Source: a virus (Duplodnaviria > Heunggongvirae > Uroviricota > Caudoviricetes). Taken from it: a stretch of DNA of 18,508 nucleotides. Numbering within the stretch: the stretch's first letter is position 1; the number at the start of each line of letters is the position of its first letter. Below are positions 1-15,559 of this stretch, piece after piece. Both the position numbers and the translations under genes were made by a program. The stretch covers positions 1-18,508 of IMG/VR virus record IMGVR_UViG_2660238511_000004. The stretch is one strand, 5' to 3'. The notes under the pieces were generated by a model. That model had not been told where the DNA came from. It saw only the letters and a program-made list of their open reading frames with translations, and ran no database searches.

Positions 1-64
1 CAGAAGTGATCACCACCCTGTCTACAGAGCCAGATGTGAAGGATGATGAGTAAAATTATCGCTA

Positions 65-502
65 TCATCGAAGGCATTGCGTCCTGATGTACTCCTGCAG
101 GTAGTTAACCTGCGCGGTTATCCTGTCGATTCCACTTCGGAGACGGTAATAATTGAGTTCAGCATCTGCTGTAAGTCTTGGGCTTTCTCCATCGCCCATG
201 CTGCTGGCTCCGGTCGTTGACTTTGCACAGGTGGCGGCGACTTGCAGGCGTTTACGACCAGCAGAAACATCAGCACGGAGACTTTCGATAGTCGCGTTAG
301 CATCAGCAAGCTCCTTTGTGTATCTGGCGTCAAGTTCTGCTACATCATGTTGCCGCTTCTGCATATCAGCGATGATGGATGTGGCTTTATCGCGCTGCTC
401 TTTGTAGGCGATTGCATTATCACGGTAATGATTAACAGCCCATGACAGGCAGACGATGATGCAAATAACCAGAGCGGAGATAATTGCGGTGACTCTGCTC
501 AT
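65..502 (-). CDS. Rz: Spanin inner-membrane subunit Rz (i-spanin)
   Basis: 145 aa product with an N-terminal TM segment, near-collinear with recalled lambda Rz ([31 protein letters not shown]...). Sits immediately downstream of R in the S-R-Rz order. Confidence 0.92.
118..303 (-). CDS. Rz1: Spanin outer-membrane lipoprotein subunit Rz1 (o-spanin), embedded in Rz in the +1 frame
   Basis: ORF 118..333 lies wholly inside Rz in another frame. Internal Met gives [20 protein letters not shown], a lipobox-type signal (LVVNAC), followed by a Pro-rich segment as in lambda Rz1. The start at 303 is inferred. Confidence 0.78.
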
Positions 503-975
503 ACATCAATCTCTCTGACCGTTCCGCCTGCTTCTTTAAATTTTGTAATCAGGCTGTCAGCCTTATGCTCGAACTGACCATAACCAGCGCCCGGCAGTGA
601 AGCCCAGATATTGCTGCAACGGTCAATTGCCTGACGAATATCACCGCGATCAATCATCGGTAAAGCGCCACGTTCTTTAATCTGTTGCAGTGCCACGGCG
701 TCCTGGCTTTTCGGAGAGAAGTCTTTCAGGCCAAGCTGCTTACGATAGGCATCCCACCAACGGGAAAGAAGCTGGTAACGTCCGGCTGCTGTTGATTCGA
801 GTTTTGGGTTTAGCGTGACAAGTTTGCGAGGGTGATCGGAGTAATCAGTGAATAGCTCTCCGCCAACAATGACGTCATAACCATGATTTCTGGTTTTCTG
901 ACGTCCGTTATCAGTCCCCTCTGACCACGCCAGCATATCGAGGAACGCCTTACGTTGATTATTGATTTCCACCAT
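499..975 (-). CDS. R: Endolysin R (lytic transglycosylase)
   Basis: 158 aa product essentially identical to recalled lambda R ([39 protein letters not shown]...). 4-bp overlap with Rz. Confidence 0.95.
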
Positions 976-1282
976 CTTCTACTCCGGCTTTTTTAGCAGC
1001 GAAGCGTTTGATAAGCGAACCAATCGAGTCAGTACCGATGTAGCCGATGAACACGCTCGTTATATAAGCGAGATTGCTACTTAGTCCGGCGAAGTCGAGA
1101 AGGTCACGAATGAACCAGGCGATAATGGCGCACATCGTTGCGTCGATTACTGTTTTTGTAAACGCACCGCCATTATATCTGCCGCGAAGGTACGCCATTG
1201 CAAACGCAAGGATTGCCCCGATGCCTTGTTCCTTTGCCGCGAGAATGGCGGCTAACAGGTCATGTTTTTCTGGCATCTTCAT
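959..1282 (-). CDS. S: Holin S (class I holin with MKM dual-start motif)
   Basis: 107 aa product near-identical to recalled lambda S107 ([34 protein letters not shown]...). Met1 and Met3 give the S107/S105 dual start. Upstream sdi-like hairpin CCCCTTATTGGGGG is present on the coding strand. Confidence 0.95.
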
Positions 1283-1524
1283 GTCTTACCCCCAATAAGG
1301 GGATTTGCTCTATTTAATTAGGAATAAGGTCGATTACTGATAGAACAAATCCAGGCTACTGTGTTTAGTAATCAGATTTGTTCGTGACCGATATGCACGG
1401 GCAAAGCGGCAGGAGGTTGTTAGCGCAACCTCATGCCACCCGCTTTCACGAAGGTCATGTGTAGAAGTCCGCAGCATAACTATCACTGATGAATCTAGGA
1501 TAGCCAGTGGCTACGGCTCAGTTA

Positions 1525-1600
1525 TGGTGCTGGTTAACGGACTTGAACCGCTACCCATTCGCTTACAAGGCGACTGCTCTACCATTGGAGCTAAACCAGC
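1525..1600 (-). tRNA. tRNA-Thr (anticodon UGU), phage-encoded
   Basis: Hand-folded cloverleaf on the minus strand: acceptor stem GCTGGTT/AACCAGC (7 bp), D arm GCTC/GAGC, anticodon loop CUUGUAA (U33, anticodon UGU, A37), T arm AGCGG-TTCAAGT-CCGTT, discriminator A, encoded CCA. One G-A mismatch at the base of the anticodon stem. Confidence 0.6.
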
Positions 1601-1605
1601 ATGTT

Positions 1606-1680
1606 TGGCGGGACAGCGTGGACTCGAACCACGATAAGAAGGTTAACAGCCTTCCGTAATGACCTTTATACGACTGACCC
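1606..1680 (-). tRNA. tRNA-Asn-like (anticodon GUU), possibly degenerate
   Basis: Minus-strand cloverleaf: anticodon stem GAAGG/CCTTC, loop CUGUUAA (anticodon GUU), T arm CGTGG-TTCGAGT-CCACG, encoded CCA. One mismatch in the acceptor stem (4-68 T-T) and one in the D stem, so function is uncertain. Confidence 0.5.
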
Positions 1681-1725
1681 AAATAAAAAAGCCACCGTTG
1701 CAACTTAAGAGTCACTAACGGCAGC
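1681..1725 (-). terminator. Candidate tR'-like intrinsic terminator or attenuator immediately downstream of Q
   Basis: Minus strand reads GCUGCCGUU-(17 nt loop)-AACGGUGGC followed by UUUUUUAUUU. The 9-bp stem includes two G-U pairs and the loop is long, so strength is uncertain. Confidence 0.3.
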
Positions 1726-1742
1726 TTACCTTCTAATTATGG

Positions 1743-2261
1743 CTAAATGGCTAATTGCATGTCAAGGCTTTTAACAGCAACATGCTTAACTTTCTCAACA
1801 CGTTTACGCATTTTGAAAGCATTTTGCATTGGCTGGTATAAAACAAATAATGACGCTTTCAGGATGTCGTCAATTTCGTTTCTACAGGTTGCCAGTGAAG
1901 GTTTTCTCCATCCCTCGCCACCACGTCCACACATCTTGCGTGGCTTTGCAGTCGCGTGATAGTAGGATGCAATTGCTCGCTTAGATGAACCATGAGCGTA
2001 GTAGCTGAGGAGGATGCCAAAGGCTTTCTTGTCAATGTACATGACGGAATCGACGACCTGAGAAATCAACATTCCATCATCATCATTGCACATTGGCCTT
2101 GTCATAACTCTTCCCGGCTCTACGCTCTCCATGAACTTCGCTATTACGCTGCTCATGCGCTTTTCCAGACGACCTGAATAAACCCATGCGCCCCACAGTT
2201 CAAGCCAGCCATTCAGCCACTCATGCTGTTCTTTGGTGAGGTTTAGTTCTCTTATGCCCAC
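1743..2261 (-). CDS. Late-gene antiterminator Q-like protein (not lambda Q type)
   Basis: 172 aa ORF in the Q position, between the nin genes and the tRNA/lysis cassette. Sequence does not resemble lambda Q; it recalls the Phage_antitermQ family ([12 protein letters not shown] motif near the N-terminus; C-x(10)-C pair). Assignment rests on position plus family recollection. Confidence 0.55.
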
Positions 2262-2923
2262 GCGCCTTCTCCCTGTACCTGAATCAATGTGAGATTTCCG
2301 CAGAACACTGCGCCGGTATCGATATACATCTGGTTGGAAAACTTGAGTGGTTTCACTGCTGGCGTATGACCAAAGATGAACGTGTCCGCGCCTTTGATTT
2401 CTTTCACGATCCCGTCTTGTGAGTTGCTGATTCGTTCGCGGTTCCAGATTACCTGCTGATGATCAACTGGCTTTCCAAACTCGTATTTATCACAAGGATA
2501 ATCGGCGTGGCAGATGACATATTTTTTACCTTTGCTCACCAGTTCGATGATTAACGGAAGTTCACCTGCTTTATGGGCAAGAGCTTTAGCCAGAATTTCT
2601 TTGTCGTAATCGAGATTAAAGAACCAGCCACCGCCATTAAGCAGCCAGTGATTGACGTTTCCACGCTCTGATAAGCCATCAATCATCATTTGCTCATGGT
2701 TTCCACGTACAGCTCTGAACCAGGGGAATGTGATTAATTCCAGGCATTCGACGTTCTCTGTACCGCGATCAACCAAATCGCCAACCGAGATAAGCAGGTC
2801 TTTTTTGGTGTCGAATCCTATCGTCTCCAGTTTTTTCATCAGGTTCGTGTAGCATCCGTGCAGATCGCCAACTACCCAAATATTTCGGTATTTGCTGCCA
2901 TCAATTCTTTCGTAATAGCGCAT
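2252..2923 (-). CDS. ninI: Serine/threonine protein phosphatase (lambda NinI / ORF221-like)
   Basis: Near-identical to recalled lambda phosphatase from [25 protein letters not shown], with GDLVDRG and GNHE metallophosphatase motifs. Start set at the internal Met (2923), which has GGAG about 9 nt upstream; the track ORF extends to 2998. Confidence 0.9.
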
Positions 2924-3107
2924 CTCTTTCACTCCATCCGCGATGAACCATGAGAACGTCGTTGACGATGGCGTGCATTTTCCCGTCTTTATCATCAACG
3001 TATTTTCTGACCGTACCGCGACTACATTTCAGTCTGCGTGCTACTTCTGTCTGGTTTCCGTATGCTTCAACGAGCATGTCTGGAATGGTTTTTACTGAGA
3101 ACGTCAT
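2901..3107 (-). CDS. ninH: NinH
   Basis: 68 aa product matching recalled lambda NinH ([37 protein letters not shown]...), a Fis-like HTH protein. Confidence 0.9.
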
Positions 3108-3715
3108 GCGGCCTCACTTCTGCTGTTTCGCAGGTCTTTGAGTTTCTGCTGATACTCCGCCTTGATGGCCCTGCACTCTTCGACAGTCCAGCGATGGCGG
3201 TTATGGTTTGATTCGATTTCGTCTACTGCTTCCTGCCCGATGCGGCTAATCAGTTCGACGCGATACGGAACGAGATTTCCGCTTTTGTGCTGGTTGCACA
3301 CCACGCATTGCTTGTGAATATTGCGTTCATCAAATCGGAGTTGAGGCGCCGCAGCAGTTGTCCGGTAATGCCCGGCATCCCACTGAGCAGACGTGAGCGT
3401 TCCGCACGAGATACATGGTAAGTCGCGGTCTCTTTCTCTGATGAAGGCGTTTACGGCTTGTTGGGCTTGTTTAATCCAGTAACTGCGGGGCTTTAAGGCG
3501 AGTTTTCGAATCTTAAGTTTATCTTTCTGTTTCTGCTCCTCTCGTCGTCGTTTCTTCTCTGCTGCCTTTTCCGCTTTTTCGCGTTCTTTGCTTCGTCGTT
3601 CGAGTGCTATCTTGGTTCCACACTCTGGAGAGCACCACCACTGATTGGCGAATGCAGGGTGAAACCATTCCCGACATTCATCGTTTTTACATCGTCTTCG
3701 CGCTGGTTTAGCCAT
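3104..3715 (-). CDS. ninG: NinG (Rap recombination endonuclease)
   Basis: 203 aa product matching recalled lambda NinG/Rap ([33 protein letters not shown]...). 4-bp overlap with ninH. Confidence 0.92.
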
Positions 3716-3878
3716 CGTCTTCTTCCTCGTGCATCGAGCTATTCGGATCGCTCATCAGTTCTGCGCAGCAGTGCTCACACACGTGAACTTCCAGCACATG
3801 CAGCTTCTGACCGCAGTTAGCACACGTTAAAGCTCGCTCGACGCTTTCTTGTTCGTAACTTCGATTTTGGTCAATCAC
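3708..3878 (-). CDS. ninF: NinF
   Basis: Hand-translated 56 aa ORF, absent from the track because under 60 aa: (V)[58 protein letters not shown] start with AAGG upstream; overlaps ninE stop and ninG start. Confidence 0.72.
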
Positions 3879-4057
3879 CTTGTTTTCCTCGCACGTTCTC
3901 TAAGCCACCGGATATCCCACAGGTGAGCCGTGTAATTGAAGGTTTTTACGTCAGATTCTTTTGGGATTGGCTTGCGTTTATTTCTGGAGCGTTTCGTTGG
4001 AAGGTATTTGCAGTTTTCGCAGATGATGTCGGTGATACTTCGTCGCTGTCGTCTCAT
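3875..4057 (-). CDS. ninE: NinE
   Basis: Internal Met of track ORF 3875..4147 gives the 60 aa product [60 protein letters not shown], matching recalled lambda NinE. Confidence 0.85.
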
Positions 4058-4581
4058 GCCGCCCTCCTGACGCCCTGCCCGATCGCCATCAATGCCGCTT
4101 TGGATACGGTAGTAAACATCCGTCGAGGACTGATGAACGGTCGCCAAATCAGCAGCATGGAGCCTTTGCTGTTTCCCTTCTTCTCCAACCCTGTCGATGG
4201 TTCGATAAAATTAATCCGTCCATCAGTGATAATGCGAACTTCGTCGACACTCTCCAGAGCCTTGCTGAACCATCCGACTGATATATCCTCTGGCACAAGC
4301 ATAACTACCGTCTGTCGCTGTTGTATGCACTGCTCAGCGGCTTTTTCCACCCACGGCCTGATATTGCTGTACGGTGGGTTATTCCAGATTGCACCGTGGC
4401 TTACCCACTCAGAATTGAGCGCGTCGTCGGCCTAAGTTAGCCAGTGAGCACACAGAGCATTTTTGTCGCTCGCTGCCGAATCCAGCCAGAATCCAAACTC
4501 AATATCCAGTGCATCAAAAAGCCAAAGCGGCGTTTGCCAGCAGTCCTTGTCGTGTGCTGGCGTATTTGATTTGATAGTCAT
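4054..4581 (-). pseudogene. Phage Dam-type DNA N6-adenine methyltransferase interrupted by an in-frame amber (TAG) codon at 4432-4434
   Basis: Track ORFs 4432..4641 (N-terminal part) and 4054..4350 (C-terminal part) are in the same frame, separated only by TAG. The joined product reads ...DKNALCAHWLT*ADDALNSEWVSHGAIWNNPPYSNIRPWVEKA... and contains the NPPY catalytic motif. Likely start is the ATG at 4581, forming an ATGA overlap with the ninB stop. Confidence 0.7.
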
Positions 4582-5018
4582 GCAGCCCGATCTCCCCATC
4601 TCGCTTTCCACTCCAGAGCCAGTCTCGCTTCGTCTGACCACTTAACGCCACGCTCTGTACCGAATGCCTGTATAAGCTCTAATAGCTCCGCAAATTCGCT
4701 TACACGCATCCTGCTGGTTGACTGGCCTATTACCACAAAGCCATTCCCGGCAAGGTTAGGAACAACGTCCTGCTGCTTTAATGCTGCTGTAAAAACGCAC
4801 TTCCAGCTTTCTGCATCCAGCCAGCGACCATGCCATTCAACCTGACGAGAGACGTCACCAAGGCAAGCCCAAAGCTTTCGATTCTGGTCTAAGCTGCGGT
4901 TGCGTTCCTGAATGGTTACTACGATTGGTTTGATTGGGTCTGGAAGAATTTGCTGGATAGCTTGAATGGCGTTCTGCTGATGAATTGGGCTTCTTAGTTC
5001 AAACGTTCGTTTCCTCAT
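4578..5018 (-). CDS. ninB: NinB (recombination protein, ORF146-like)
   Basis: 146 aa product closely matching recalled lambda NinB (…HQQNAIQAIQQILPDPIKPIVVTIQERNRSLDQNRKLWACLGDVSRQVEWHGRW…). GAAGGTGAGC lies ahead of the ATG. Confidence 0.93.
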   Translation of the reverse strand: MRKRTFELRSPIHQQNAIQAIQQILPDPIKPIVVTIQERNRSLDQNRKLWACLGDVSRQVEWHGRWLDAESWKCVFTAALKQQDVVPNLAGNGFVVIGQSTSRMRVSEFAELLELIQAFGTERGVKWSDEARLALEWKARWGDRAA

Positions 5019-5253
5019 GGCTCACCTTCTGCACGCATGGATTAATTAACGCCAAAATAGCTTCTGGTTTCTCAATAACATCGAACCGCTCACCACTTGC
5101 CATTCTTACAATCGTAAATCCGGCATCAAATAGGGTTTCGATGTTGTCAGAATTAACGTACAAGGGCTCATATGCACTTCTGGTGCTTTCTATCGCGCTT
5201 GTGCTTGGTGGCTGATAGATGCTGCATCGCATGGTTAATTTGATAAATGACAT
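4999..5253 (-). CDS. Hypothetical protein (84 aa)
   Basis: ORF with AAGGAG 8 nt upstream of the ATG; tightly packed (4-bp gap to the upstream gene, 20-bp overlap with ninB). No recognisable motifs. Confidence 0.5.
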   Translation of the reverse strand: MSFIKLTMRCSIYQPPSTSAIESTRSAYEPLYVNSDNIETLFDAGFTIVRMASGERFDVIEKPEAILALINPCVQKVSHEETNV

Positions 5254-5257
5254 ATAC

Positions 5258-5566
5258 TCACTCCTTCACTTTGATTCCAGCGGCGCGGATAGCCTCTACA
5301 TCGCTTTCGTATTGCGATTCTGCACCTGAGTCATAGCCAATGTGATAATCACCGGGAAGTGGGCCTTTCTTTGGCTTTTGCAGCTCAATCTCGATAGCTG
5401 CTCGCGATGCCTGCCATAAAGTCCACCACTCATTTAAGGAGTGACGAATATCCATGCTTGAAAATGCGAAGTACCTATCACCATTTCTTGCCTCGGTTAT
5501 CATCTCGAATGGTAATCTCAATTTTTTGGCAACGTATTCCTCAAACTGCTTTCTTGATTCGCCCAT
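5258..5566 (-). CDS. Hypothetical protein (102 aa)
   Basis: ORF with GGGGA upstream of the start; same orientation and packing as its neighbours. No recognisable catalytic motif. Confidence 0.5.
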   Translation of the reverse strand: MGESRKQFEEYVAKKLRLPFEMITEARNGDRYFAFSSMDIRHSLNEWWTLWQASRAAIEIELQKPKKGPLPGDYHIGYDSGAESQYESDVEAIRAAGIKVKE

Positions 5567-5577
5567 ATCAATCCCCG

Positions 5578-5778
5578 TTATGACAGGTTAATTTTCACCC
5601 AACCCTTCCCACGCACATTTGCAACAAGCCCTTTCTTTCTCAGGTATTGCATACGGCGATCGATGGTTTCGATATACATTCCATTGCTCCGCCATTTAAG
5701 CCAGATATCAAAAACAGGTGTTGGTCTTTCACTCAGCATTGAAAGAATGTTTTGATCTAATTTTTCGTACTTGCTCAC
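5578..5778 (-). CDS. Hypothetical small protein (66 aa), basic, possibly DNA-binding
   Basis: ORF overlapping the upstream gene by 4 bp (translational coupling). Basic C-terminal half (RRMQYLRKKGLVANVRGKGW) looks winged-helix-like. Confidence 0.45.
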   Translation of the reverse strand: MSKYEKLDQNILSMLSERPTPVFDIWLKWRSNGMYIETIDRRMQYLRKKGLVANVRGKGWVKINLS

Positions 5779-6101
5779 AAATACCCTCTCTCACTTAATC
5801 GCGCCCACGCTTCGTTAAACTCTTCTCTAGTTGCGCCGGATTTTCTTTCTTCGAACATCATGCATTCGCTGATGTCTCCCCATGACTTTGGTCGCTTTTC
5901 AGCGAACAGATCATCCCATTCGAATACCCAGCGGCCTGATTTTCGGTAGTGGTAAATGGTCAGCCATGTTGTGCTGTTCGCTGGATACCCATAGAGAACT
6001 TCGACTTTTTGATCACGGTCTTTATGCTTTTTCAGCAGGATAAAGCCAGCAACCAGCGAAGCTCCGGCAAGAATGATGATTGGAATTTGCCAGTCAGCCA
6101 C
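5775..6101 (-). CDS. Hypothetical membrane-anchored protein (108 aa; one N-terminal TM helix)
   Basis: GTG start preceded by GGGAGAGGGAAG. N-terminal hydrophobic segment IPIIILAGASLVAGFILL followed by KKHKDRD (positive-inside). Directly downstream of the helicase terminator. Confidence 0.5.
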   Translation of the reverse strand: MADWQIPIIILAGASLVAGFILLKKHKDRDQKVEVLYGYPANSTTWLTIYHYRKSGRWVFEWDDLFAEKRPKSWGDISECMMFEERKSGATREEFNEAWARLSERGYL

Positions 6102-6111
6102 ACTTCCCTCT

Positions 6112-6147
6112 CCCCCAAATAAAAAGGCCTGCGATTACCAGCAGGCC
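6112..6147 (-). terminator. Rho-independent terminator downstream of the helicase gene
   Basis: Minus strand: GGCCUGC-(8 nt loop)-GCAGGCC, a perfect 7-bp GC-rich stem, followed by UUUUUAUUUGGGGG. Confidence 0.6.
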
Positions 6148-6176
6148 TGTTATTAGCTCAGTTATGTAGATGGTCA

Positions 6177-7613
6177 TCAGAATCCTCCTTTCTTCTTGGA
6201 CTGCGGTTCCTCGCGTTCACGGCGGCGCATTTCAGCAGACTGTTGGTCTGTGTCATAAATAGCGCCATTTGCCTGAATGCAATACACCGTGCCGGTATTG
6301 CCATGACGATTGAGACGAAGGATTAGTTCGGTTTCACCAGGTGGAACACTGTCATCAAAAGCACCTTCACGATGGATCCCCACCCAATAATCGCAATCCT
6401 GTTCAATCTGCCCTGTATCTCGTGAGTCACTTGGTAATGGGCGTTTATTGGTTCGGCTTTCCAGTGCGCGGTTAAGCTGTGTCAGAAGCACAACAACGCA
6501 ATCAAGCTCTTTGGCAAGGTTCTTCAGTCCTTTGGTGATCATGCCGTAAGCAAGGTCGTTGCGATCGGCCTTCTCAGCGGTCATTAGTGTCAGGTAATCG
6601 ACCAGAATCATGCCAACACATCCTTTTTCTCGCTTGATTCGACGGCTTTCGCTGACGATTTGAGCCAGAGATAATCCCGGCGTGTCGTCGATGTAAAGCA
6701 TGTCGATTTCACTCAAGCGATTAGCTGTTTCGATCGCCCTGTTGAAGTCACCATCGTAATCACCCTGATAGCCGTCATCAGCGTCATTTGTCGCCGGAAG
6801 GTAAAAAATATTCGGGTTAACACCTGACTTCTGTCCTACCAGTTTTTCCAGTATCTGGTCACCGGGCATTTCAAGGCTGAACATCAGAGCGGGCTTTTTC
6901 TCATGCACTGCGCAGTTGATTGCCATCTGGCTGTATAGCGTCGTTTTCCCCATCTTAGGGCGAGCGCCAATGACAAACAGAGAGCCTTTCACCAGACCTT
7001 TCGGTGACAGCATCCTGTCCAGCGATGGGATCCCTGTGCTCATTCCTCGTTGTTCGCCTGACGGGTCAAATCGCTTCTCAAGGTCGCTAACCCAGTCTTC
7101 CATGACCTCACCAAATGAGCGAAGGCCGCGACGCGATCCGGTTTTTGCATGGTCTGTCAGTTGCGTGAAAATCGACTGAATAGCTTCGTACTTCTGTGTT
7201 GCAGTCATTCCGTTGCGGGAATAGAGCAATTCCGTCGCTTCAGTCATGCGGTTGATGGCGTAGCGTTCCATTGCGGTTTCGCGAACCTGCATTGCATAAG
7301 CAACGATGTTTGCTGCGCTTGGCGTGTTCTTTGCGATCTCAGCGATATAAGCAAAACCGCCAACAGACGCCGTTAACGATTTACGCTCCAGTTCATCGAA
7401 AAGCGTCAGGCCATCTACTGGCTTTTGCTCACGGTGCATTCTGGTTATTTCTTCGAAAATGATTTTGTGTGGTCGGCTGTAAAATGAATCAGGCTTCAGC
7501 ATCGCCAGAACTTTCTGGACGCGCTCACTGCTGTCATCATCCAGAAGCAATCCACCAATCACCGCCTGCTCTGCCTCGATGCTATGGGGCGGCGCATAAA
7601 AATTATCGGTCAT
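6177..7613 (-). CDS. Replicative DNA helicase, DnaB family (P22 gene 12-like)
   Basis: DnaB-type N-terminal motif (HSIEAEQAVIGGLLLD), Walker A (GARPKMGKTT) and the overall DnaB architecture. Start set at the ATG with GAGGGTGAA upstream (7613); the track ORF begins 15 nt earlier at GTG. Overlaps the end of the O-like gene. Confidence 0.9.
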   Translation of the reverse strand: MTDNFYAPPHSIEAEQAVIGGLLLDDDSSERVQKVLAMLKPDSFYSRPHKIIFEEITRMHREQKPVDGLTLFDELERKSLTASVGGFAYIAEIAKNTPSAANIVAYAMQVRETAMERYAINRMTEATELLYSRNGMTATQKYEAIQSIFTQLTDHAKTGSRRGLRSFGEVMEDWVSDLEKRFDPSGEQRGMSTGIPSLDRMLSPKGLVKGSLFVIGARPKMGKTTLYSQMAINCAVHEKKPALMFSLEMPGDQILEKLVGQKSGVNPNIFYLPATNDADDGYQGDYDGDFNRAIETANRLSEIDMLYIDDTPGLSLAQIVSESRRIKREKGCVGMILVDYLTLMTAEKADRNDLAYGMITKGLKNLAKELDCVVVLLTQLNRALESRTNKRPLPSDSRDTGQIEQDCDYWVGIHREGAFDDSVPPGETELILRLNRHGNTGTVYCIQANGAIYDTDQQSAEMRRREREEPQSKKKGGF

Positions 7614-8430
7614 CGTGTTCACCCTCACGAACTTTCAGGTAGGTATTATCGTTAAGCAGGAAATCAAATCCCTTTTTGTGCCAGACGGTTCCGCGTTGAT
7701 GGTTTGGGCGCTCTTCGAACATCCATCGGCAATTTTCGCCAACGTAGCTCAAATAATTTCTCCAGTCCTGCATCGTGAACCCATGCCCGTCAAGCTGGCG
7801 GGTTATCACTCCGGCTTTGCGCCAGAACGTTCGGATCTGGTTTTTACGCTTGTCATTCAGTGCGCGGATTCTTGGCGCTTCAGGAAGGATTTCGTGGTAA
7901 GCATCGACAACATCCTGACAGCTAACGGAAGGTTTTTTCTTGTCAGACTTTTTGTCTGCTGTGGCACTCTCTAATACGTCAGTATTAGAGATATTATTTA
8001 TATTATTGTTTATGGACAACCGTTGGACAGCCGTTGGACAATCTCCGCTGAGAGCCGCGCCATTACTGGTGTTTGCGTTGGACAAACGTTGGACAACCGT
8101 TGGACAATTTTTTGCCTGAAAATCGTCATATTTAACGATTGTAAACAGGCTAAATTTCTTCCCCATCGAGCAAATATTAAGCATCCCTTTCGACTCAAAA
8201 GTCCGTAATAAGCTCCGAACTTTGTTGTCGGGGATGAATGTTTCTCTGACCAGAGACGGGCGTCCAGTTATCATCTGACCGCGATCAACAGTTATCGGAC
8301 CGATATCCGTATTGACGACAGTAGATTCGTGATTAGCCTTGAGGATTAAGTGAAGCCAAAGATGTACTGCCTGAGAGTCCTTATAGAGCCTGCTGTCCAT
8401 AAACTGGCGGTGTATAGAGACATACCCCAT
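7603..8430 (-). CDS. Replication initiator protein (lambda O / P22 gp18 analogue) containing the origin
   Basis: Lies between cII and the helicase and contains the iteron array and AT-rich tract in its linker (protein repeats CPTVVQRLSN, CPTAVQRLS, then INNNINNISN). Start set at Met22 (8430), which has AGGAGG 8 nt upstream; the track ORF starts at 8493. Confidence 0.8.
   Translation of the reverse strand: MGYVSIHRQFMDSRLYKDSQAVHLWLHLILKANHESTVVNTDIGPITVDRGQMITGRPSLVRETFIPDNKVRSLLRTFESKGMLNICSMGKKFSLFTIVKYDDFQAKNCPTVVQRLSNANTSNGAALSGDCPTAVQRLSINNNINNISNTDVLESATADKKSDKKKPSVSCQDVVDAYHEILPEAPRIRALNDKRKNQIRTFWRKAGVITRQLDGHGFTMQDWRNYLSYVGENCRWMFEERPNHQRGTVWHKKGFDFLLNDNTYLKVREGEHDDR
7983..8106. repeat. 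Phage replication origin: five direct iterons (GTTGGACA core) plus an adjacent AT-rich tract, inside the O-like gene
   Basis: GTTGGACA at 8022-8029, 8033-8040, 8077-8084, 8088-8095 and 8099-8106, with a partial copy at 8013-8019. AT-rich tract ATTAGAGATATTATTTATATTATTGTTTATGG at about 7985-8016. This is the lambda-like ori layout. Confidence 0.75.
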
Positions 8431-8479
8431 ACTGGATGCCTCCTGATATTGTACAGGGTTATGCCTGTAATCAGCTAAC

Positions 8480-8641
8480 TTAACGACGCCCATGTTTCAC
8501 TCCTGCTTTGGCTAGTCTGTAAACACCAACAAGGCGCTCTGCGAACGCCCTGTTATTTGCTGCGGCTACCACTAATCCCTCAGGTGAATCAGGGTGTCGA
8601 ATCTCTTCTTTTTCCTGGTATTTCTTACGACGTTTTGTCAT
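8480..8641 (-). CDS. Small basic hypothetical ORF (53 aa) between cII and the O-like gene
   Basis: Hand-translated MTKRRKKYQEKEEIRHPDSPEGLVVAAANNRAFAERLVGVYRLAKAGVKHGRR, with GGGAG about 6 nt upstream of the ATG. No recognisable family; could be a leader-region artefact. Confidence 0.25.
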   Translation of the reverse strand: MTKRRKKYQEKEEIRHPDSPEGLVVAAANNRAFAERLVGVYRLAKAGVKHGRR

Positions 8642-8675
8642 AATTACTCCCGTGGATTGATCCAGTCTTTCTACA

Positions 8676-8954
8676 TTAGGCCTCGAAGAATTCGCCGTTC
8701 TTCGGGGCTTTTTCTTTTGTCAGCATTCTGGCTACTTTCTTAGCCAGTTCCGCCAACTCCTCGTCTTCAACACCCCATTCAAGAACAGCCAGAAGCATTC
8801 CCATTTTTGGGATGAAGCTGTCTTTCCATCGCGAAATTTGCGATTCATTAACCCCTAACGCGTCGGCAACCTTTCGCTGACCACGTACAGCAATTCGATT
8901 CAGGATGTTGCTTGTAATTGCATTCGCTTTCTTGCGAGTACTTGTAAGTTGCAT
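8676..8954 (-). CDS. cII: Transcriptional activator cII
   Basis: Internal Met of track ORF 8676..9014 gives 92 aa MQLTSTRKKANAITSNILNRIAVRGQRKVADALGVNESQISRWK...MLLAVLEWGV..., which aligns with recalled lambda cII (SQISRWKRDWIPKFSMLLAVLEWGV). AAGGA lies 11 nt upstream. Position between cro/nutR and O is as expected. Confidence 0.85.
   Translation of the reverse strand: MQLTSTRKKANAITSNILNRIAVRGQRKVADALGVNESQISRWKDSFIPKMGMLLAVLEWGVEDEELAELAKKVARMLTKEKAPKNGEFFEA
8681..8720 (+). terminator. Intrinsic terminator on the strand antisense to the cII 3' end (oop-like antisense RNA terminator)
   Basis: Plus strand: CCUCGAAGAA-(UUCGCCG)-UUCUUCGGGG, a 10-bp stem with one G-U pair, followed by CUUUUUCUUUUGU. 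It lies inside the last cII codons on the opposite strand, the position of the lambda oop terminator, though the sequence differs from lambda oop. Confidence 0.6.
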
Positions 8955-9033
8955 ATGTAAGTATTTCCTTAGATAACAATTGATTGAATGTATGCAAATA
9001 AATGCATACACCATAGGTGTGGTTTAATTTGAT

Positions 9034-9065
9034 GCCCTTTTTCAGGGCTGGGATGTGTAAGAGCG
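9034..9065 (-). promoter_or_regulatory. nutR: nutR (boxA CGCTCTTACACA, boxB GCCCTGAAAAAGGGC)
   Basis: Minus strand between cro and cII reads CGCTCTTACACATCCCAGCCCTGAAAAAGGGCATCAAATTAAACCACACC..., the lambda nutR boxA/boxB, followed by the tR1-like region. Confidence 0.85.
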
Positions 9066-9073
9066 GGAATGTC

Positions 9074-10426
<1,353 letters not shown>

Positions 10427-10475
10427 TCCCCACCTCAATCTCGATAACCAAAAACAAACTATTTTTCATTTAAAA

Positions 10476-10543
10476 ACAATGGAGTTTGTTTTTCACGCCC
10501 CTTTTTACAATATTTCTTGTTTACAACATACAATCTTTCTTGT
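10476..10543. promoter_or_regulatory. 434-type left operator region (three ACAA-N6-TTGT operators) overlapping pL
   Basis: ACAATGGAGTTTGT (10476-10489), ACAATATTTCTTGT (10507-10520), ACAATCTTTCTTGT (10530-10543). Same consensus as the OR sites. Confidence 0.8.
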
Positions 10544-10548
10544 AATTT
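10520..10548 (+). promoter_or_regulatory. Candidate pL promoter (TTTACA -17- TAATTT)
   Basis: -35 TTTACA at 10520-10525, 17-bp spacer, -10 TAATTT at 10543-10548, overlapping the two N-proximal operators and oriented toward nutL and N. Confidence 0.5.
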
Positions 10549-10588
10549 TAAGCCATCAGCAGGACGCACTGACCACCATGAAGGTGAG

Positions 10589-10619
10589 GCTCTTAAAAAT
10601 TAAGCCCTGAAGAAGGGCA
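10589..10619 (+). promoter_or_regulatory. nutL: nutL (boxA GCTCTTAAAAA, boxB GCCCTGAAGAAGGGC)
   Basis: Plus strand reads ...GGTGAGGCTCTTAAAAATTAAGCCCTGAAGAAGGGCAGC..., the lambda nutL boxA/boxB, followed by a lambda-like N leader. Confidence 0.85.
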
Positions 10620-10886
10620 GCATTCAAAGCAGAAGGCTTTGGGGTGTGGTGAAGCCAGCTAGTCACTGGCAAGTGCTTACCTACTGTTGAGCGGTGAAGC
10701 GCTCCCAACGCTAGCAATAGCGTGGACGAGATGGGGAGCCGCGGGCGATAAGGCCGCCATAACGCGCACGTTGTCGCATGGAAAAATCGCTGGGGTGCCG
10801 GTTATACCCCTCCGAATGAGACTCAACAAGCTGGAGCTAGACTACCAGCCACCACACCACCAAAGCTAACTGACAGGAGAATCCAG

Positions 10887-11219
10887 ATGGATGCACAAAC
10901 ACGCCGCCGCGAACGTCGCGCAGAGAAACAGGCTCAATGGAAAGCAGCAAATCCCCTGTTAGTTGGGGTAAGCGCAAAACCAGTTAACCGCCCTATTCTC
11001 TCGCTGAATCGCAAACCGAAATCACGAGTAGAAAGCGCACTGAATCCGATAGACCTTACGGTGCTGGCTGAATACCACGAACAGATTGAAAGCAACCTGC
11101 AGCGTATTGAGCGCAAGAATCAGCGCACATGGTACAGCAAGCCACGCTGTGAAATGGGTGTGACTTGCTCAGGCCGCCAGAAGCAACGCGGAAAATCAAT
11201 TCCAGCTTATTACGATTGA
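10887..11219 (+). CDS. N: Antitermination protein N (lambda type)
   Basis: 110 aa product MDAQTRRRERRAEKQAQWKAANPLLVGVSAKPVNRPILSLNRKPKSRVESALNPIDLTVLAEYH..., near-identical to recalled lambda N including the Arg-rich boxB-binding N-terminus. GGAGAATCCAG precedes the ATG. Confidence 0.95.
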   Translation: MDAQTRRRERRAEKQAQWKAANPLLVGVSAKPVNRPILSLNRKPKSRVESALNPIDLTVLAEYHEQIESNLQRIERKNQRTWYSKPRCEMGVTCSGRQKQRGKSIPAYYD

Positions 11220-11227
11220 GGTGAGCC

Positions 11228-11365
11228 ATGCTCAAGAAAGTCAAACGCCGACTTTACAAAGAAGGTAGATATTCATGCCAGTTGCCAAAATGCGACACAA
11301 CAAAATGGAGTGTCGATGATTGGTGTAACTGGATAGATAGATACGGAACTTGGTGGGATAAATAA
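11228..11365 (+). CDS. Possible small Cys-rich ORF (45 aa) downstream of N
   Basis: Hand-translated MLKKVKRRLYKEGRYSCQLPKCDTTKWSVDDWCNWIDRYGTWWDK. Weak RBS; occupies the region where lambda has tL1 and sieB. Speculative. Confidence 0.2.
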   Translation: MLKKVKRRLYKEGRYSCQLPKCDTTKWSVDDWCNWIDRYGTWWDK

Positions 11366-11419
11366 CAGGTAACTTAAGCGTATTTACTTTCGCAGCAAAC
11401 CACTTATTTGAGGTGAGAT

Positions 11420-11506
11420 ATGGAAGAAGAATTTGAAGAGTTCGAAGAGCATCCTCAGGATGTGATGGAACAATACCAGGACTACCCTTATGACTACGAC
11501 TATTGA
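11420..11506 (+). CDS. orf28-like small acidic ORF (28 aa)
   Basis: Hand-translated MEEEFEEFEEHPQDVMEQYQDYPYDYDY with GAGGTGAGAT upstream. It is 87 nt long and overlaps ral by 17 bp, which is the geometry recalled for lambda orf28/ral. Confidence 0.55.
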   Translation: MEEEFEEFEEHPQDVMEQYQDYPYDYDY

Positions 11507-11690
11507 TAAAAATCAATGGTGTGGACAATTCAAGCGATGCAATGGATGCAAGCTGCAATCGGAATGCATGGTTAAGCCTGAAGAAATGTTTCCTGTAATG
11601 GAAGATGGGAAATGTGTCGATAAATGGGCAATACGAACGACGGCAATGATTGCCAGAGAACTTGGTAAACAGAATAACAAGGCTGCCTGA
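11490..11690 (+). CDS. ral: Restriction alleviation protein Ral
   Basis: 66 aa product MTTTIDKNQWCGQFKRCNGCKLQSECMVKPEEMFPVMEDGKCVDKWAIRTTAMIARELGKQNNKAA, matching recalled lambda Ral. Confidence 0.9.
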   Translation: MTTTIDKNQWCGQFKRCNGCKLQSECMVKPEEMFPVMEDGKCVDKWAIRTTAMIARELGKQNNKAA

Positions 11691-11748
11691 TGGTGGCCTT
11701 TATTTTTGTCCGTAAATAATTTCATGCTTATTACAATCAAGGTGATAT

Positions 11749-12171
11749 ATGGAAGAACAAGCAAACAAGATTCTCGTAGAACTACTGCAAAAAGCCAGTA
11801 ATGGAATAGACGCGGCTGTTTCATTCAGCCAGGCACAGATTCCTGATGTTGTTCATCAGTTGCTAATATGGAGTTTTGTCCATAGCGCACTTTTCCAAGT
11901 GGCTGGATTGTTGCTTTTAATTGCAGCAATTAAACTTCCTAGTTTTGCAAGAACGGCAAGAAATAATGGCGAGAGATGGACGTCTTTCGATGGACGTCCA
12001 AATGATGGACATTTTATATCTTCGGTTTATTACGATATATGCACTGTATTTGTTCCTATATTTGGCTCAATTATGGGTGTTTTAATTATTGCCTTCAATT
12101 TCGAATGGTTGAAGATTTGGATTGCGCCTAAGTTATTCCTAATTGAATATGCGGCATCATTGGTTAAGTAA
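11749..12171 (+). CDS. Hypothetical integral membrane protein (140 aa, 2-3 predicted TM helices) in the pL operon
   Basis: AAGGTGA lies 5 nt upstream of the ATG. Hydrophobic segments LLIWSFVHSALFQVAGLLLLIAAI and VFVPIFGSIMGVLIIAFNF. Followed by a terminator. No recognisable family. Confidence 0.55.
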   Translation: MEEQANKILVELLQKASNGIDAAVSFSQAQIPDVVHQLLIWSFVHSALFQVAGLLLLIAAIKLPSFARTARNNGERWTSFDGRPNDGHFISSVYYDICTVFVPIFGSIMGVLIIAFNFEWLKIWIAPKLFLIEYAASLVK

Positions 12172-12320
12172 TTTCAGGCCGCATAGTCTGCCTTTATTTT
12201 TAGCATAAACAAGAGAATAAACACTGCACTGTGTATTCATTCCAACGAGTGAATACACGGAGCAATGTCGCTCGTAACTAAACAGGAGCCGACTTGTTCT
12301 GATTATTGGAAATCTTCTTT

Positions 12321-12347
12321 GCCCTCCAGTGTGAGGGCAATTTTTTT
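12321..12347 (+). terminator. Rho-independent terminator (tL2-like) ahead of the recombination module
   Basis: GCCCUC-(CAGUGU)-GAGGGC, a perfect 6-bp stem, followed by AAUUUUUUU. The next gene's RBS GGAGG and ATG follow immediately at 12360. Confidence 0.65.
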
Positions 12348-12359
12348 GACGGAGGATAT

Positions 12360-13328
12360 ATGAGTGAAGTAACAGATTTAGTTGTTATTGAAAAAGCAAA
12401 TGCAATGACTGTATTTCAGTCTGCCGACCAGATTGAAGAAATTCTCCAAAAGGTTGAACGTGAAGTTATGTCCTTTGTGCCTGATATCACAACGGCAAAG
12501 GGCAGAAAGGAGATCGCTTCTCTGGCGTATAAAGTTGCGCAGACGAAAACATATCTCGATGGTCTTGGCAAAGACCTTGTTGCTGAACTGAAGGAAATTC
12601 CAAAGCTAATTGATGCCAACCGCAAGACGGTGCGCGATCGCCTTGATGAACTGAAAGCCAAGGCGCGCCAGCCTCTTACTGATTATGAGGAGGAACAGGC
12701 ACGGATTAAAGCCGAAGAAGAAGCTAAGGCAGCAGCTGAAGCTCTCGCAAAGCAAATTGAGTCTGACCATGAAATAGCGATTTTGATGGATCGCGAGTTT
12801 GACCGCCAAAGAGAAGAGGCAAGACTCAAAGCGGAGCAGGAAAAGCGAGAGCATGAAGAACGCTTAAAAAGAGAAGCTGAAGAGAAAGCCAGAGCAGAAG
12901 CCGAAGCAAAGGCAAAAGCCGAAATTGAAGCAGCAGCAAGACGAGAAGCAGAGGCTAAGGCCGCAGCGGAACGTGCAGAGCGTGAACGCATTGAAGCCGA
13001 GCAACGAGCACAGCGCGAAGCAAAAGAGGCAGCAGAACGAGCTGAAAGAGAAAAGCAAGCGGCAATTGAAGCAGAACGCCGAAAAGCACAGGAGGAGGCT
13101 GAACGAATCCGGCGCGAGGCTGAAGCAAAAGAGCAAGCCAGAATAGCAGAAGAAAAAAGAATCAAGGACGAAGAAGAGCGCAGAGCAAAGGATAAAGCTC
13201 ACCGGAAAGAAGTAAATAACAAAATACTTGCTGACCTTATCAAGGTTGGCGCATCAGAAGATGTTGCTAAAAATATCATAACAGCCATCGTAAAAGGCGA
13301 AGTATTCGCAACAAAAATAACCTACTAA
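12360..13328 (+). CDS. Coiled-coil phage protein (322 aa) with a long Glu/Ala/Lys/Arg-rich central helix; possibly Gp157/DUF1351-like and recombination-associated
   Basis: Start set at the ATG with GGAGG upstream; the track's earlier start (12306) would put the terminator hairpin inside the ORF. The central 160 aa or so are degenerate EAKA/ERAE heptad-like repeats. Family assignment is from memory only. Confidence 0.65.
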   Translation: MSEVTDLVVIEKANAMTVFQSADQIEEILQKVEREVMSFVPDITTAKGRKEIASLAYKVAQTKTYLDGLGKDLVAELKEIPKLIDANRKTVRDRLDELKAKARQPLTDYEEEQARIKAEEEAKAAAEALAKQIESDHEIAILMDREFDRQREEARLKAEQEKREHEERLKREAEEKARAEAEAKAKAEIEAAARREAEAKAAAERAERERIEAEQRAQREAKEAAERAEREKQAAIEAERRKAQEEAERIRREAEAKEQARIAEEKRIKDEEERRAKDKAHRKEVNNKILADLIKVGASEDVAKNIITAIVKGEVFATKITY

Positions 13329-13352
13329 TAAAACCAACATAAGGAACCACCC

Positions 13353-13484
13353 ATGATTTACGCAATCGCGGGAGGCGCTCGCATGGGTGCCTTCCAACTA
13401 AATGAATCTTTACTTGAACGAATCACCCGTAAATTACGTGACGGATGGAAAAGAGTTGAGGTCTTATTATGCGCAATGAAATAG
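13353..13484 (+). CDS. cIII: cIII-like protease inhibitor (43 aa)
   Basis: Hand-translated MIYAIAGGARMGAFQLNESLLERITRKLRDGWKRVEVLLCAMK. The core ESLLERITRKLRDGWKR matches recalled lambda cIII. AAGGAA lies 6 nt upstream. Confidence 0.75.
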   Translation: MIYAIAGGARMGAFQLNESLLERITRKLRDGWKRVEVLLCAMK

Positions 13485-13867: not shown

Positions 13868-13875
13868 GGTGAATT

Positions 13876-15057: not shown

Positions 15058-15066
15058 GAGCTGAAT

Positions 15067-15546: not shown

Positions 15547-15559
15547 TCAGGAGAAAATC

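Follow-up and report, generated by a model that had tools for sequence, protein, structure and literature searches.

Downstream of a Q-type late antiterminator gene and upstream of the lysis gene S, the late-transcript strand of the virus analysed here carries two tRNA-shaped genes followed by a nested inverted repeat, and this raises the question whether the two genes are functional tRNAs, decoys or processing signals, and whether the repeat belongs with them. The window (the whole stretch of DNA that was analysed, 18,508 nucleotides) is 100% identical to the reverse strand of the Shigella phage Sf6, and the GenBank record of Sf6, in which both tRNAs, pR′, qut and tR′ are annotated, was mapped onto it (Table 1). 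We propose, with a probability of roughly 0.8, that the two tRNAs form a phage-21-type late-operon cassette serving late translation and the replacement of host tRNA-Thr, and that the hairpin formed by the repeat is a separate, cis-acting structure of the lysis leader. The initial annotation of this locus is thus partly supported as a reading, and the observation on which it was built is confirmed.

The late-strand map between Q and S

The late promoter pR′ in the Sf6 annotation is nearly identical to that of phage 21, and the U-tract of tR′, UUUUUUAUUU, adjoins G1 of tRNA-Asn, which comes first on the late strand and is followed by tRNA-Thr; the end of tR′ lies one base ahead of tRNA-Asn. At the 3′ end of tRNA-Thr the homology with lambda breaks. 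In the initial annotation, lambda was said to have nothing but the 6S/tR′ region in this interval, which is wrong, as lambda 44946-45186 matches the 241-nt stretch from tRNA-Thr to S with 95% identity; the annotation had also regarded both the tRNAs and the hairpin as inserted between Q and the lysis genes. This holds for the tRNAs, which, relative to lambda, are part of a swapped-in phage-21-type Q/pR′/tR′/tRNA module; the equivalent lambda slot has no tRNA, and no tRNA relics were found there. The hairpin, however, is not an insertion, because lambda has the same hairpin in its own leader, ahead of the lysis genes. The spacer with hairpin A is common to lambda and some tRNA-bearing relatives (SfI).

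Table 1. Features of the late strand from the Q-type gene to S, in window coordinates.
Feature	Position	Strand	Evidence
Q-type late antiterminator gene (Sf6 gene 59, phage 21 Q-like)	1743-2261	-	ORF list and mapped GenBank annotation
Late promoter pR′, TTGACA-18-CATAAT	1736-1765	-	Promoter scan, 11/12 matches
tR′ leader terminator	1682-1726	-	Annotation; fold -20.2 kcal/mol, z -4.07
tRNA-Asn(GUU), G73-CCA encoded, U4.U69 and U13.U22 mismatches	1606-1680	-	ARAGORN, Rfam
tRNA-Thr(UGU), A73-CCA encoded, G27.A43 mismatch, U28-A42	1525-1600	-	ARAGORN, Rfam
Spacer with hairpin A	1454-1524	-	Fold -22.4 kcal/mol, z -2.96
Conserved leader element, P0 enclosing the hairpin	1381-1452	-	Covariance model R1, 1383-1452, 91.1 bits
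P0 helix, UUCGUGA with UCACGAA	1452-1446 with 1387-1381	-	
Hairpin B (P1-P2-P3)	1397-1443	-	MFE fold, pair counts, loop inversions
P1, GCGGGU with GCCCGU	1443-1438 with 1402-1397	-	
P2, GGCA with UGCC	1437-1434 with 1411-1408	-	
P3, GAGGUUG with CAACCUC; loop CGCUAA	1432-1426 with 1419-1413; loop 1425-1420	-	
Hairpin C, seg1 GAACAAAUCU with seg2 GGAUUUGUUC	1343-1383 (seg1 1383-1374, seg2 1352-1343)	-	Folds
seg3 GAGCAAAUCC, then sdi-type stem-loop and Shine-Dalgarno region of S	1283-1310 (seg3 1310-1301)	-	
Holin/antiholin S, dual start MKM, Pfam Phage_holin_3_1	959-1282	-	

Identity and proposed roles of the tRNA pair

That the two genes are genuine late-strand tRNA genes between the Q-like gene and S was borne out by ARAGORN, which called tRNA-Thr(tgt) and tRNA-Asn(gtt), and by the Infernal/Rfam check of the region, in which RF00005 matched the first with 61.5 bits (E 2e-11) and the second with 55.3 bits (E 1e-9) against a gathering score of 29. 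The encoded CCA was likewise read in the sequence of both, and the stem mismatches noticed by the initial annotation are real, as the Rfam alignment places them at positions 27 and 43 of tRNA-Thr (G27.A43) and at U4.U69 and U13.U22 of tRNA-Asn. The anticodon loops CUUGUAA and CUGUUAA have 7 nt, U33 and a purine at 37, as is typical of bacterial-type tRNAs, and the T-arms GGUUCAAGUCC and GGUUCGAGUCC fit the T-loop GGUUCRANUCC. Synthetase identity resides in G1-C72, C2-G71, G35 and U36 for Thr and in G34, U35, U36 and G73 for Asn, and on reading the sequences all the ThrRS elements were found in tRNA-Thr and all the AsnRS elements in tRNA-Asn. The D-loop of tRNA-Thr has C at the near-universal A14. 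A third, degenerate tRNA was found in 1380-1520 neither with Rfam (E up to 10) nor with ARAGORN.

The tRNA pair is already known and adds no new biology: both genes stand in the GenBank record of Sf6, and its Asn and Thr tRNAs have been mentioned at the same position (PMC8022706). Moreover, over its 166 nt the tRNA cassette matches the phage 21 record AJ237660 with 100% identity, and ARAGORN calls the same two tRNAs in that record; the match to tRNA-Thr21 rests on this record and on the features described in PMC12445682.

From the anatomy of the locus, transcription from pR′ would reach the tRNAs once Q permits readthrough of tR′, and host tRNA-processing enzymes would then excise both from the late transcript. 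Both would serve late translation, which is unusually ACA-rich, and after destruction of the host tRNA-Thr(UGU), a single-copy tRNA, by an OLD-family Toprim nuclease, the phage tRNA-Thr would take its place.

The comparison of the anticodons with the codon usage of the late genes, which the initial annotation had proposed as a check, showed that ACA occurs 17.2 times per 1000 codons in the Sf6 late genes and 5.4 times in 42 K-12 genes (3.2-fold, p 4e-14) and makes up 30% and 10% of the Thr codons, respectively, while Asn codons number 48 per 1000 in the Sf6 late genes and 38 in K-12; the 42 genes served as the K-12 baseline, and a 9-gene set dominated by yeeJ was set aside. The host region examined contains a single thrU gene. 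These figures could suit tRNAs that provide codon supply only and have no role against defence nucleases, and a similar argument has been made for AAC in the capsid gene of phage L (PMC8022706), so that this explanation keeps some weight, but we hold it for less probable than not. The identical phage 21 tRNA-Thr protects from P2 Old, whereas host tRNA-Thr species protect little or not at all (PMC12445682); the Asn and Thr anticodons are two of the three main PARIS targets (PMC12409363); and in the homologues of Klebsiella phage Mulock the acceptor-stem pairs covary, whereas the mismatched anticodon arm is conserved, G27.A43 being retained, as is U4.U69. Codon supply and an anti-nuclease role can go together, since it is the high demand for ACA decoding that makes the loss of tRNA-ThrU costly.

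P2 Old kills by cleaving host tRNA-ThrU at paired CNG motifs, and resistance to it requires an altered CNG motif together with a shortened anticodon stem, which tRNA-Thr21 provides through C28U/G42A and a short stem (PMC12445682, Govande et al. 2025). The phage 21 tRNA-Thr guards against P2 Old by resisting cleavage and replacing the host tRNA, although the rescue is partial, with small colonies (PMC12445682). Sf6 tRNA-Thr, which has the UGU anticodon, reads GUCGC at 27-31 and GCGAA at 39-43, so that G27.A43 is unpaired and shortens the anticodon stem, 28-42 is U-A, and the host CUG/CAG at positions 28-30/40-42 has become UCG/CGA (C28U/G42A) with the CNG motif gone. What the initial annotation had noted as a stem mismatch (G27.A43, with U28-A42) is, judged from sequence, a match to the published Old-resistance features. 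By its identity with the phage 21 gene, for which replacement was shown against P2 Old in 2025, Sf6 tRNA-Thr would have the same replacement role.

The initial annotation had also considered that the genes could be tRNA-shaped decoys or processing signals and not decoding tRNAs. There are stem mismatches in each of them, the second tRNA of phage L has a replaced anticodon arm and receives no ARAGORN call, and competition for AriB has been noted as a further possible effect of viral tRNAs when overexpressed (PMC12409363). In the Old system, however, the identical phage 21 tRNA-Thr replaces the host tRNA and ACA decoding is restored, and there is no competitive inhibition, because host tRNA-ThrU is still depleted with the phage tRNA present (PMC12445682). 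With the synthetase identity elements complete in both sequences as well, the decoy explanation is very improbable.

The decoding pair may also bear on PARIS, whose AriB targets tRNA-Lys(UUU), Thr(UGU) and Asn(GUU) and cuts at U36AAUC/A41 (the stroke marks the cut), with U39, A41 and U16 being important (PMC12409363). The tRNA-Lys of T5 was required against PARIS in published assays (PMC12409363), and no tRNA-Lys was called by ARAGORN in the window. In Sf6 tRNA-Thr, positions 36-41 read UAAGCG and position 16 is A, by which the AriB site is lost; in tRNA-Asn, the same positions are UAACCU where the host has UAAUCC, by which the site is changed. From these differences at 39, 41 and 16 we infer that either tRNA may resist AriB, and tRNA-Asn may have an anti-nuclease role like that of tRNA-Thr. 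The companion of tRNA-Thr thus bears the anticodon of the other non-lysine PARIS target.

The exact tRNA-Thr occurs in 18 of 79 prophages with the same holin (about a fifth), and among 239 S-leader loci sampled, 32 carry Asn plus Thr and only 5 any other tRNA. Hence, a P22-like Shigella phage and prophages with the same holin carry the exact tRNA-Thr that counters P2 Old. Since it is accompanied by a tRNA-Asn of PARIS-target type, a two-tRNA countermeasure against OLD-family nucleases may therefore be common among lambdoid phages. The Mulock tRNA-Asn homologue has an anticodon stem of CAG/CUG, which is a CNG motif; therefore, Old resistance is not family-wide.

The stem-loop of the lysis-cassette leader

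The nested inverted repeat that the initial annotation placed at 1403-1446 is present, with outer arms AAAGCGG (1403-1409) and CCGCTTT (1440-1446) and inner arms GAGGTTG/CAACCTC, and the hairpin starts 79 nt downstream of tRNA-Thr. The proposed outer stem was nevertheless rejected, as it exists only in Sf6 and lambda-type copies and is not conserved in the P22-/HK620-type relatives, which keep P1 instead; the outer pairing is ambiguous in a single sequence because the Sf6 MFE fold with P0 takes yet another register. As RNA, the 61-nt hairpin stretch folds at -25.8 kcal/mol (z -2.98; 1 of 200 shuffles as good) and the 72-nt element with P0 at -32.8 kcal/mol (z -4.19; none of 200). On the late strand the hairpin is no intrinsic terminator, as the initial annotation had rightly held: it is followed by GCAUAUCGG with no U-run, and the scan of 1200-2300 returned nothing terminator-like on either strand.

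The conserved fold is P0-P1-P2-P3, and it was found across seven divergent phages and 108 variants, with 94.1% of the cells paired against 29-54% when the partners were slid; the shuffle control of these counts takes no account of sequence kinship. P1 covaries, with UA/CG/UG and GC/GU/AU pair types. Hairpin C is invariant in the BLAST-derived alignment A1. The same leader, about 170 nt long, stands ahead of dual-start holin genes of three unrelated families in lambda, P22, HK620 and many prophages. Rfam 15, searched over 1250-1800 on either strand with an E cutoff of 10, gave no hairpin family, the only matches being the two tRNAs and a chance ctRNA match (13.8 bits), and the literature, searched by topic and by literal sequence, yielded nothing relevant. 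By these findings the hairpin is conserved and seems not to have been described before, and it forms the first stem-loop of the lysis-cassette leader. Its putative role most likely lies in cis in the late mRNA, where it could act in the folding, processing or stability of the 5′ region of the lysis cassette. A dispersed repeat of REP/MITE type was ruled out by the covariance model R1, which matched once in the window and likewise only once in the whole genome of Sf6. A GTDB scan returned mostly chance matches and probable lambda contamination.

The strand signals within the fold diverge. In P1 and P0, 183 G.U wobble cells are valid on the late strand only and 0 on the opposite strand, whereas in P2/P3 the non-Watson-Crick cells are A.C on the late strand and G.U on the opposite (window +) strand, by 101 against 3. 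In 105 of 108 variants the opposite strand gives the more stable inner hairpin. The late-strand fold was missed by RNAalifold with default scoring (-2.18 kcal/mol), which gave -13.8 on the opposite strand, while RIBOSUM scoring recovered the fold about equally on both. The inner-helix signals would fit a hairpin that works on the opposite strand, as part of an antisense RNA or of a terminator region in the antisense direction, and in P22-/HK620-type relatives an adjoining hairpin has the score of an intrinsic terminator, on the + strand only. The Sf6 and lambda versions, however, lack this adjoining terminator, the promoter scan found no nearby promoter-like site on the + strand in Sf6, P22 or HK620, an Rfam match is absent on both strands, and the P1 and P0 wobble runs counter to it, so we judge an antisense function unlikely.

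A DNA palindrome without RNA function, flipping by recombination between its arms at a phage-module junction, was also considered. The loop of the inner stem has flipped repeatedly: loops occur in both orientations (CGTCAA 8/TTGACG 7; CTCGAA 4/TTCGAG 2; CGCTAA 73/TTAGCG 1), two whole-hairpin inversions were seen, a breakpoint common to many phages falls at window 1453, one base ahead of P0, and the variation of lambda-type copies is concentrated in one arm. Yet in HK620-type copies the stem persists in a quite different sequence, P1, outside the palindrome, covaries as well, a neutral palindrome would not be expected to give the observed strand bias of mismatches, and the element is co-inherited with the leader ahead of the three holin families, by which this explanation appears improbable too. 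Far less credible still is a small late-strand protein (frame ...LRESGWxEVALTTSC...): a 50-codon ORF spans 1334-1486(-) and several common polymorphisms fall at third codon positions, but natural variants carry TGG to TGA changes or 1-nt deletions in frame, P22-/HK620-type copies shift frame and stop early, and neither the start codon nor the Shine-Dalgarno sequence is conserved, and this ORF was rejected.

For the preferred cis-acting leader structure, a more specific form can be put forward with some reserve. The leader 10-mer GGAUUUGUUC is complementary to two copies of GAACAAAUCC, one upstream and one downstream, and the latter adjoins the stem-loop ahead of S, known as sdi in work on lambda S. 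Folding favours the seg1:seg2 pairing in three of four leaders, and the conservation of the seg2:seg3 pairing carries no statistical weight, as 8 of 10 positions would tolerate transitions in any case. It is conceivable, though we would not expect it, that lambda has an undescribed cis-regulatory lysis leader RNA (about 44997-45185) in which alternative pairing could set the holin/antiholin start choice or late-mRNA processing, and hence lysis timing, or else that the strand pattern reflects an unrecognised antisense transcript. The hairpin is strongly conserved, structured and apparently unstudied, and lies in the lambda S leader, a classic model of lysis timing; it matters less than the tRNAs.

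Comparison with known systems

The closest counterpart of the tRNA pair is that of phage 21, which it resembles in sequence, in the slot after a Q21-type pR′/tR′ and in G27.A43 with U28-A42. The tRNAs themselves show no differences, and Sf6 is a P22-like Shigella podovirus with a lambda-S-type lysis cassette downstream and not coliphage 21. With the T5 tRNAs that act against PARIS, Sf6 shares the Thr and Asn anticodons and the changes at the AriB site (39 not U, 41 changed); however, Sf6 is temperate and has two tRNAs without tRNA-Lys, whereas T5 is lytic and has 24. Klebsiella phage Mulock has Asn-Phe-Thr-Arg tRNAs, and 933W has ileZ-argN-argO genes between Q and the lysis/stx genes; the slot on the late strand, after the late terminator and before the holin, is common to these phages and Sf6, but both tRNA sets differ from that of Sf6.

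For the leader, the sdi stem-loop of lambda S decides between the S107 and S105 starts, and it lies in the same leader RNA, co-conserved with the hairpin and 110-150 nt downstream of it; the hairpin (1397-1443) is distinct from it and lies upstream. In non-coding chloroplast DNA, hairpin loops undergo small inversions; the present hairpin resembles these in that its loop occurs in either orientation while the stem arms stay unchanged, whereas here the inversions occur in a phage leader region with RNA-type covariation in the flanking helix.

Origin and late-strand layout

Over positions 1-18390 the window matches the reverse strand of Shigella phage Sf6 (AF547987 / NC_005344) at 100% identity, so that the late strand is the window minus strand; the tRNA and hairpin region lies at 36065-36342 of the Sf6 record. 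The final 118 bases (18391-18508) are not Sf6, as the match ends at the attP core, and the last ~75 bases match the terminus of a multi-copy IS3-family element. The window thus probably represents a prophage whose host is rich in IS elements. Its ninG (3104-3715 region) is free of IS911, which interrupts ninG in the reference Sf6 record.

A single base separates the end of the tR' U-tract from G1 of tRNA-Asn, and five bases separate tRNA-Asn from tRNA-Thr. With this layout, the tRNA cassette would be transcribed solely after Q-dependent read-through of tR', and host tRNA-processing enzymes would excise both tRNAs from the late transcript.

Features of the late strand (window minus strand), in window coordinates
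Feature	Position	Sequence	Remarks
Q21-like gene	1743-2261		upstream of tRNAs
Late promoter	1765-1736	TTGACA-18-CATAAT	near-consensus; promoter scan
qut region			upstream of tRNAs
tR' hairpin	1726-1682		fold -20.2 kcal/mol, z -4.07
tRNA-Asn(gtt)	1606-1680		ARAGORN; Rfam RF00005 55.3 bits (gathering score 29)
tRNA-Thr(tgt)	1525-1600		ARAGORN; Rfam RF00005 61.5 bits (gathering score 29)
P0	1452-1446 with 1387-1381	UUCGUGA with UCACGAA	outer helix closing element
P1	1443-1438 with 1402-1397	GCGGGU with GCCCGU	MFE; 5-nt bulge, 3' side
P2		GGCA with UGCC	MFE
P2/P3 junction		U.C mismatch	MFE
P3		GAGGUUG with CAACCUC	MFE
Hairpin B loop	1420-1425	CGCUAA	MFE
Hairpin C	1383-1374 with 1352-1343	GAACAAAUCU with GGAUUUGUUC	downstream of hairpin B
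Second 10-mer copy	1310-1301	GAGCAAAUCC	downstream of hairpin C
sdi-type stem-loop			before dual-start S

A conserved hairpin in the holin leader

The inverted repeat that the initial annotation placed at 1403-1446 exists, and the late-strand RNA of this hairpin (hairpin B, formed by P1-P3) folds at -25.8 kcal/mol (z -2.98), but its supposed outer stem, AAAGCGG/CCGCTTT, is unused in the MFE, which pairs P1 instead. With P0 included, the 72-nt element reaches -32.8 kcal/mol (z -4.19) and the outer register shifts again in this fold of the Sf6 sequence alone, so that the outer pairing could be settled by comparative data only. The hairpin had also been taken for an insertion between the Q-like gene and S, which is contradicted by the 241-nt interval from tRNA-Thr to S, equivalent to lambda 44946-45186 at 95% identity. 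The lambda homology starts directly past the tRNA-Thr CCA, and lambda carries no tRNA at the same slot. Since the homology shared by HK106, Sf101, P22, ES18, g341c, an Enterobacter phage and others (73-99% identity) begins at window 1453, one base upstream of P0, and runs toward S, the hairpin is the first element of a module travelling with the holin gene.

Homologous elements were collected from IMG/VR and GTDB by a pattern in hairpin C, the separate downstream stem-loop, and not in hairpin B, yielding 120 distinct variants, and the alignment A2 comprises 108 distinct cores. Under the P1-P3 structure, 94.1% of the A2 cells are standard pairs, and the proportion falls to 29-54% when the partners are slid. 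Shuffling of the partners, a control that ignores relatedness, gave 91.2 ± 0.2% standard pairs, with 0/500 shuffles reaching 94.1%, and a covariation score of 0.152 against 0.209 observed. The pair types in P1 are UA 57, CG 40 and UG 10 at one pair and GC 54, GU 45 and AU 9 at another, and those in P3 are CG 51 and UA 47. Because of that property of the control, the figures are supportive of P1-P3 but not conclusive. Searched with a covariance model of the same structure, the window yields a single match (1383-1452, 91.1 bits), the sole one in the Sf6 genome; the model also matches the copies of lambda, P22, ES18, g341c, HK620 and the Enterobacter phage. A dispersed repeat is rejected by this single site.

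The hairpin-C pattern also has exact 44-nt matches, equal in length to those of lambda-family loci, in ~3.5-kb contigs (L145, L185, L192, L196 and L178 among them) from assemblies of unrelated bacteria, including Cohnella, Flavobacterium, Pedobacter and Aeromicrobium; the likeliest source of these contigs is contamination of the assemblies by lambda control DNA.

Substitutions are distributed asymmetrically between the strands. The 183 intermediate cells of P1 all read G.U on the late strand and would be A.C on the other. In P2/P3 the late strand has A.C or C.A in 101 cells, namely G.U on the opposite one, versus 3 late-strand G.U. The opposite strand is the stabler for the inner hairpin in 105 of the 108 variants (mean -19.4 vs -13.7 kcal/mol), and default RNAalifold recovers a helix on that strand only, while RIBOSUM scoring gives the full fold on both. 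A late-strand leader structure tolerating A.C pairs may explain this asymmetry, and so may a second function on the opposite strand. Bearing on the latter, a hairpin followed by UUUUC lies directly 5' of the element and adjoins P0 in the leaders of the P22 type (L003 579-604, minus strand of that locus) and of the HK620 type (L006 532-558, likewise minus strand), and scores as an intrinsic terminator solely on the strand opposite the late transcript; Sf6 and lambda are without it, and the promoter scan found no promoter-like site for an opposite-strand transcript.

On unchanged stems, the 6-nt loop is found in either orientation (CGTCAA 8/TTGACG 7; CTCGAA 4/TTCGAG 2; CGCTAA 73/TTAGCG 1; relatives at L240, L245, L247 and L320 among others), and in two pairs of variants the entire inner hairpin is exactly inverted. 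DNA-level inversion of the palindrome has therefore happened repeatedly, and the orientation of the loop is evidently irrelevant to any role of the hairpin.

Further downstream, GGAUUUGUUC is complementary to both copies of GAACAAAUCC, upstream (1374-1383) and downstream (1301-1310), the latter reaching into the sdi stem, whose first two C would be occupied by pairing with GGAUUUGUUC. The P22 leader fold has the downstream pairing in the centroid and the upstream pairing in the MFE; the two pairings could alternate, which is a lead and not a result. The same leader precedes three holin families, Pfam Phage_holin_3_1, Phage_holin_3_3 (locus L257) and PHROG 1350 (loci L247, L258 and L271). Dual-start motifs (MKM, MKKM, MNKM, MFRM) are found in all three unrelated families, and the sdi-type stem covaries across their leaders. 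One leader before three dual-start holin families ties the module not to a coding sequence but to the late-mRNA control of holin expression, and mainly for this reason we prefer a cis-acting late-mRNA role for the hairpin. As an element of the lambda-family holin leader, the hairpin is real, conserved and single-copy; literature searches yielded no described function for it, and the chance that it is a genuine regulatory RNA is modest.

The tRNA cassette and host-tRNA nucleases

The two tRNA-shaped genes of the initial annotation are correct and already known. Both, together with pR', qut and tR', are annotated in the Sf6 GenBank record, where the tRNAs are labelled "similar to phage 21"; the pair has also been discussed in the literature, and functional characterisation of the Thr gene exists through the identical phage 21 copy. 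ARAGORN calls both, and the Rfam check asked for matches both well over the gathering score. Each encodes CCA after the expected discriminator (A73 in Thr, G73 in Asn), and the stem mismatches are present as described, namely G27.A43 at the top of the tRNA-Thr anticodon stem and, in tRNA-Asn, an acceptor-stem U4.U69 and a D-stem U13.U22. Compared with established tRNA-identity knowledge, the ThrRS and AsnRS identity elements are complete. Phage 21 record AJ237660 contains the 166-nt cassette at 100% identity, and ARAGORN calls the same two genes there; the cassette reaches at least 80% coverage in 59 phage records and at least 99% identity in 36, and is present at 32/239 loci with the same S leader and at 18 of the 79 loci chosen solely for an identical holin.

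In the same slot, Klebsiella phage Mulock (L425 401-720) carries a four-tRNA cassette of Asn, Phe, Thr and Arg. Its acceptor stems have compensatory changes at pairs 3-70 and 6-67 (Thr) and 6-67 and 7-66 (Asn), and the Thr anticodon arm including G27.A43 and the Asn U4.U69 are unchanged, so that these two mismatches are features under maintenance rather than decay. The tRNA-Thr D-loop (window 1581-1588) is CAAUGGUA, in which the position 14 site is C and position 16 is A; A14 is almost universal in tRNAs, and the Mulock homologue keeps the same D-loop. Phage L has a tRNA-Asn identical to that of Sf6, and its second gene (L424 436-507), annotated as tRNA-Leu(UAA), retains both the acceptor arm and the T arm of the Thr gene, with the anticodon arm replaced; ARAGORN makes no tRNA call there.

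The effector protein behind P2-lambda interference, P2 Old, is lethal because it cleaves host tRNA-Thr(UGU); it also cuts tRNA-Asn(GUU), at a lower rate. Phage tRNA-Thr(UGU) species are cleavage-resistant and rescue cells by substituting for the host tRNA (Govande et al., 2025; PMC12445682). Resistance requires an altered CNG motif and a shortened anticodon stem, and the phage 21 tRNA-Thr (tRNA-Thr21), with C28U/G42A and a short stem, was protective when assayed (PMC12445682). The Sf6 tRNA-Thr reads GUCGC at positions 27-31 and GCGAA at 39-43, versus ACUGA and UCAGU in host thrU, so that G27.A43 is unpaired, 28-42 is U-A and both CNG motifs are gone. The mismatch that had suggested decoys or processing signals is thus a published Old-resistance feature, and with phage tRNAs replacing the host tRNA that suggestion is unsupported. 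The Mulock tRNA-Asn anticodon stem is CAG/CUG, and therefore CNG loss is no constant trait of this Asn family.

The PARIS nuclease AriB attacks tRNA-Lys(UUU), Thr(UGU) and Asn(GUU) and cuts at U36AAUC|A41, changes at U39, A41 or U16 block or reduce the cleavage, and tRNA-Lys was indispensable in T5 experiments (Belukhina et al., PMC12409363). Positions 36-41 are UAAGCG in Sf6 Thr (with A16) versus host UAAUCA, and UAACCU in Sf6 Asn versus host UAAUCC. At the sequence level only, the cassette, which is without tRNA-Lys, corresponds to two of the three PARIS targets, with the AriB site missing in both.

Codon supply was compared with a baseline of 42 K-12 genes. ACA is used 17.2 times per 1000 codons in Sf6 late genes versus 5.4 (3.2-fold, p about 4e-14), or 30% versus 10% of Thr codons, and Asn codons number 48 versus 38 per 1000. 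Codon supply and counter-defence are compatible roles, because heavy ACA demand makes the loss of a single-copy host tRNA costly. The phage also encodes an Abc2-like RecBCD modifier and a Ral-like restriction-alleviation protein (window 15560-15856 (+)/11490-11690 (+)). In other phages, Old- and PARIS-type defences are set off by functions of this type, and the two genes are consistent with the carriage of nuclease-resistant tRNAs.
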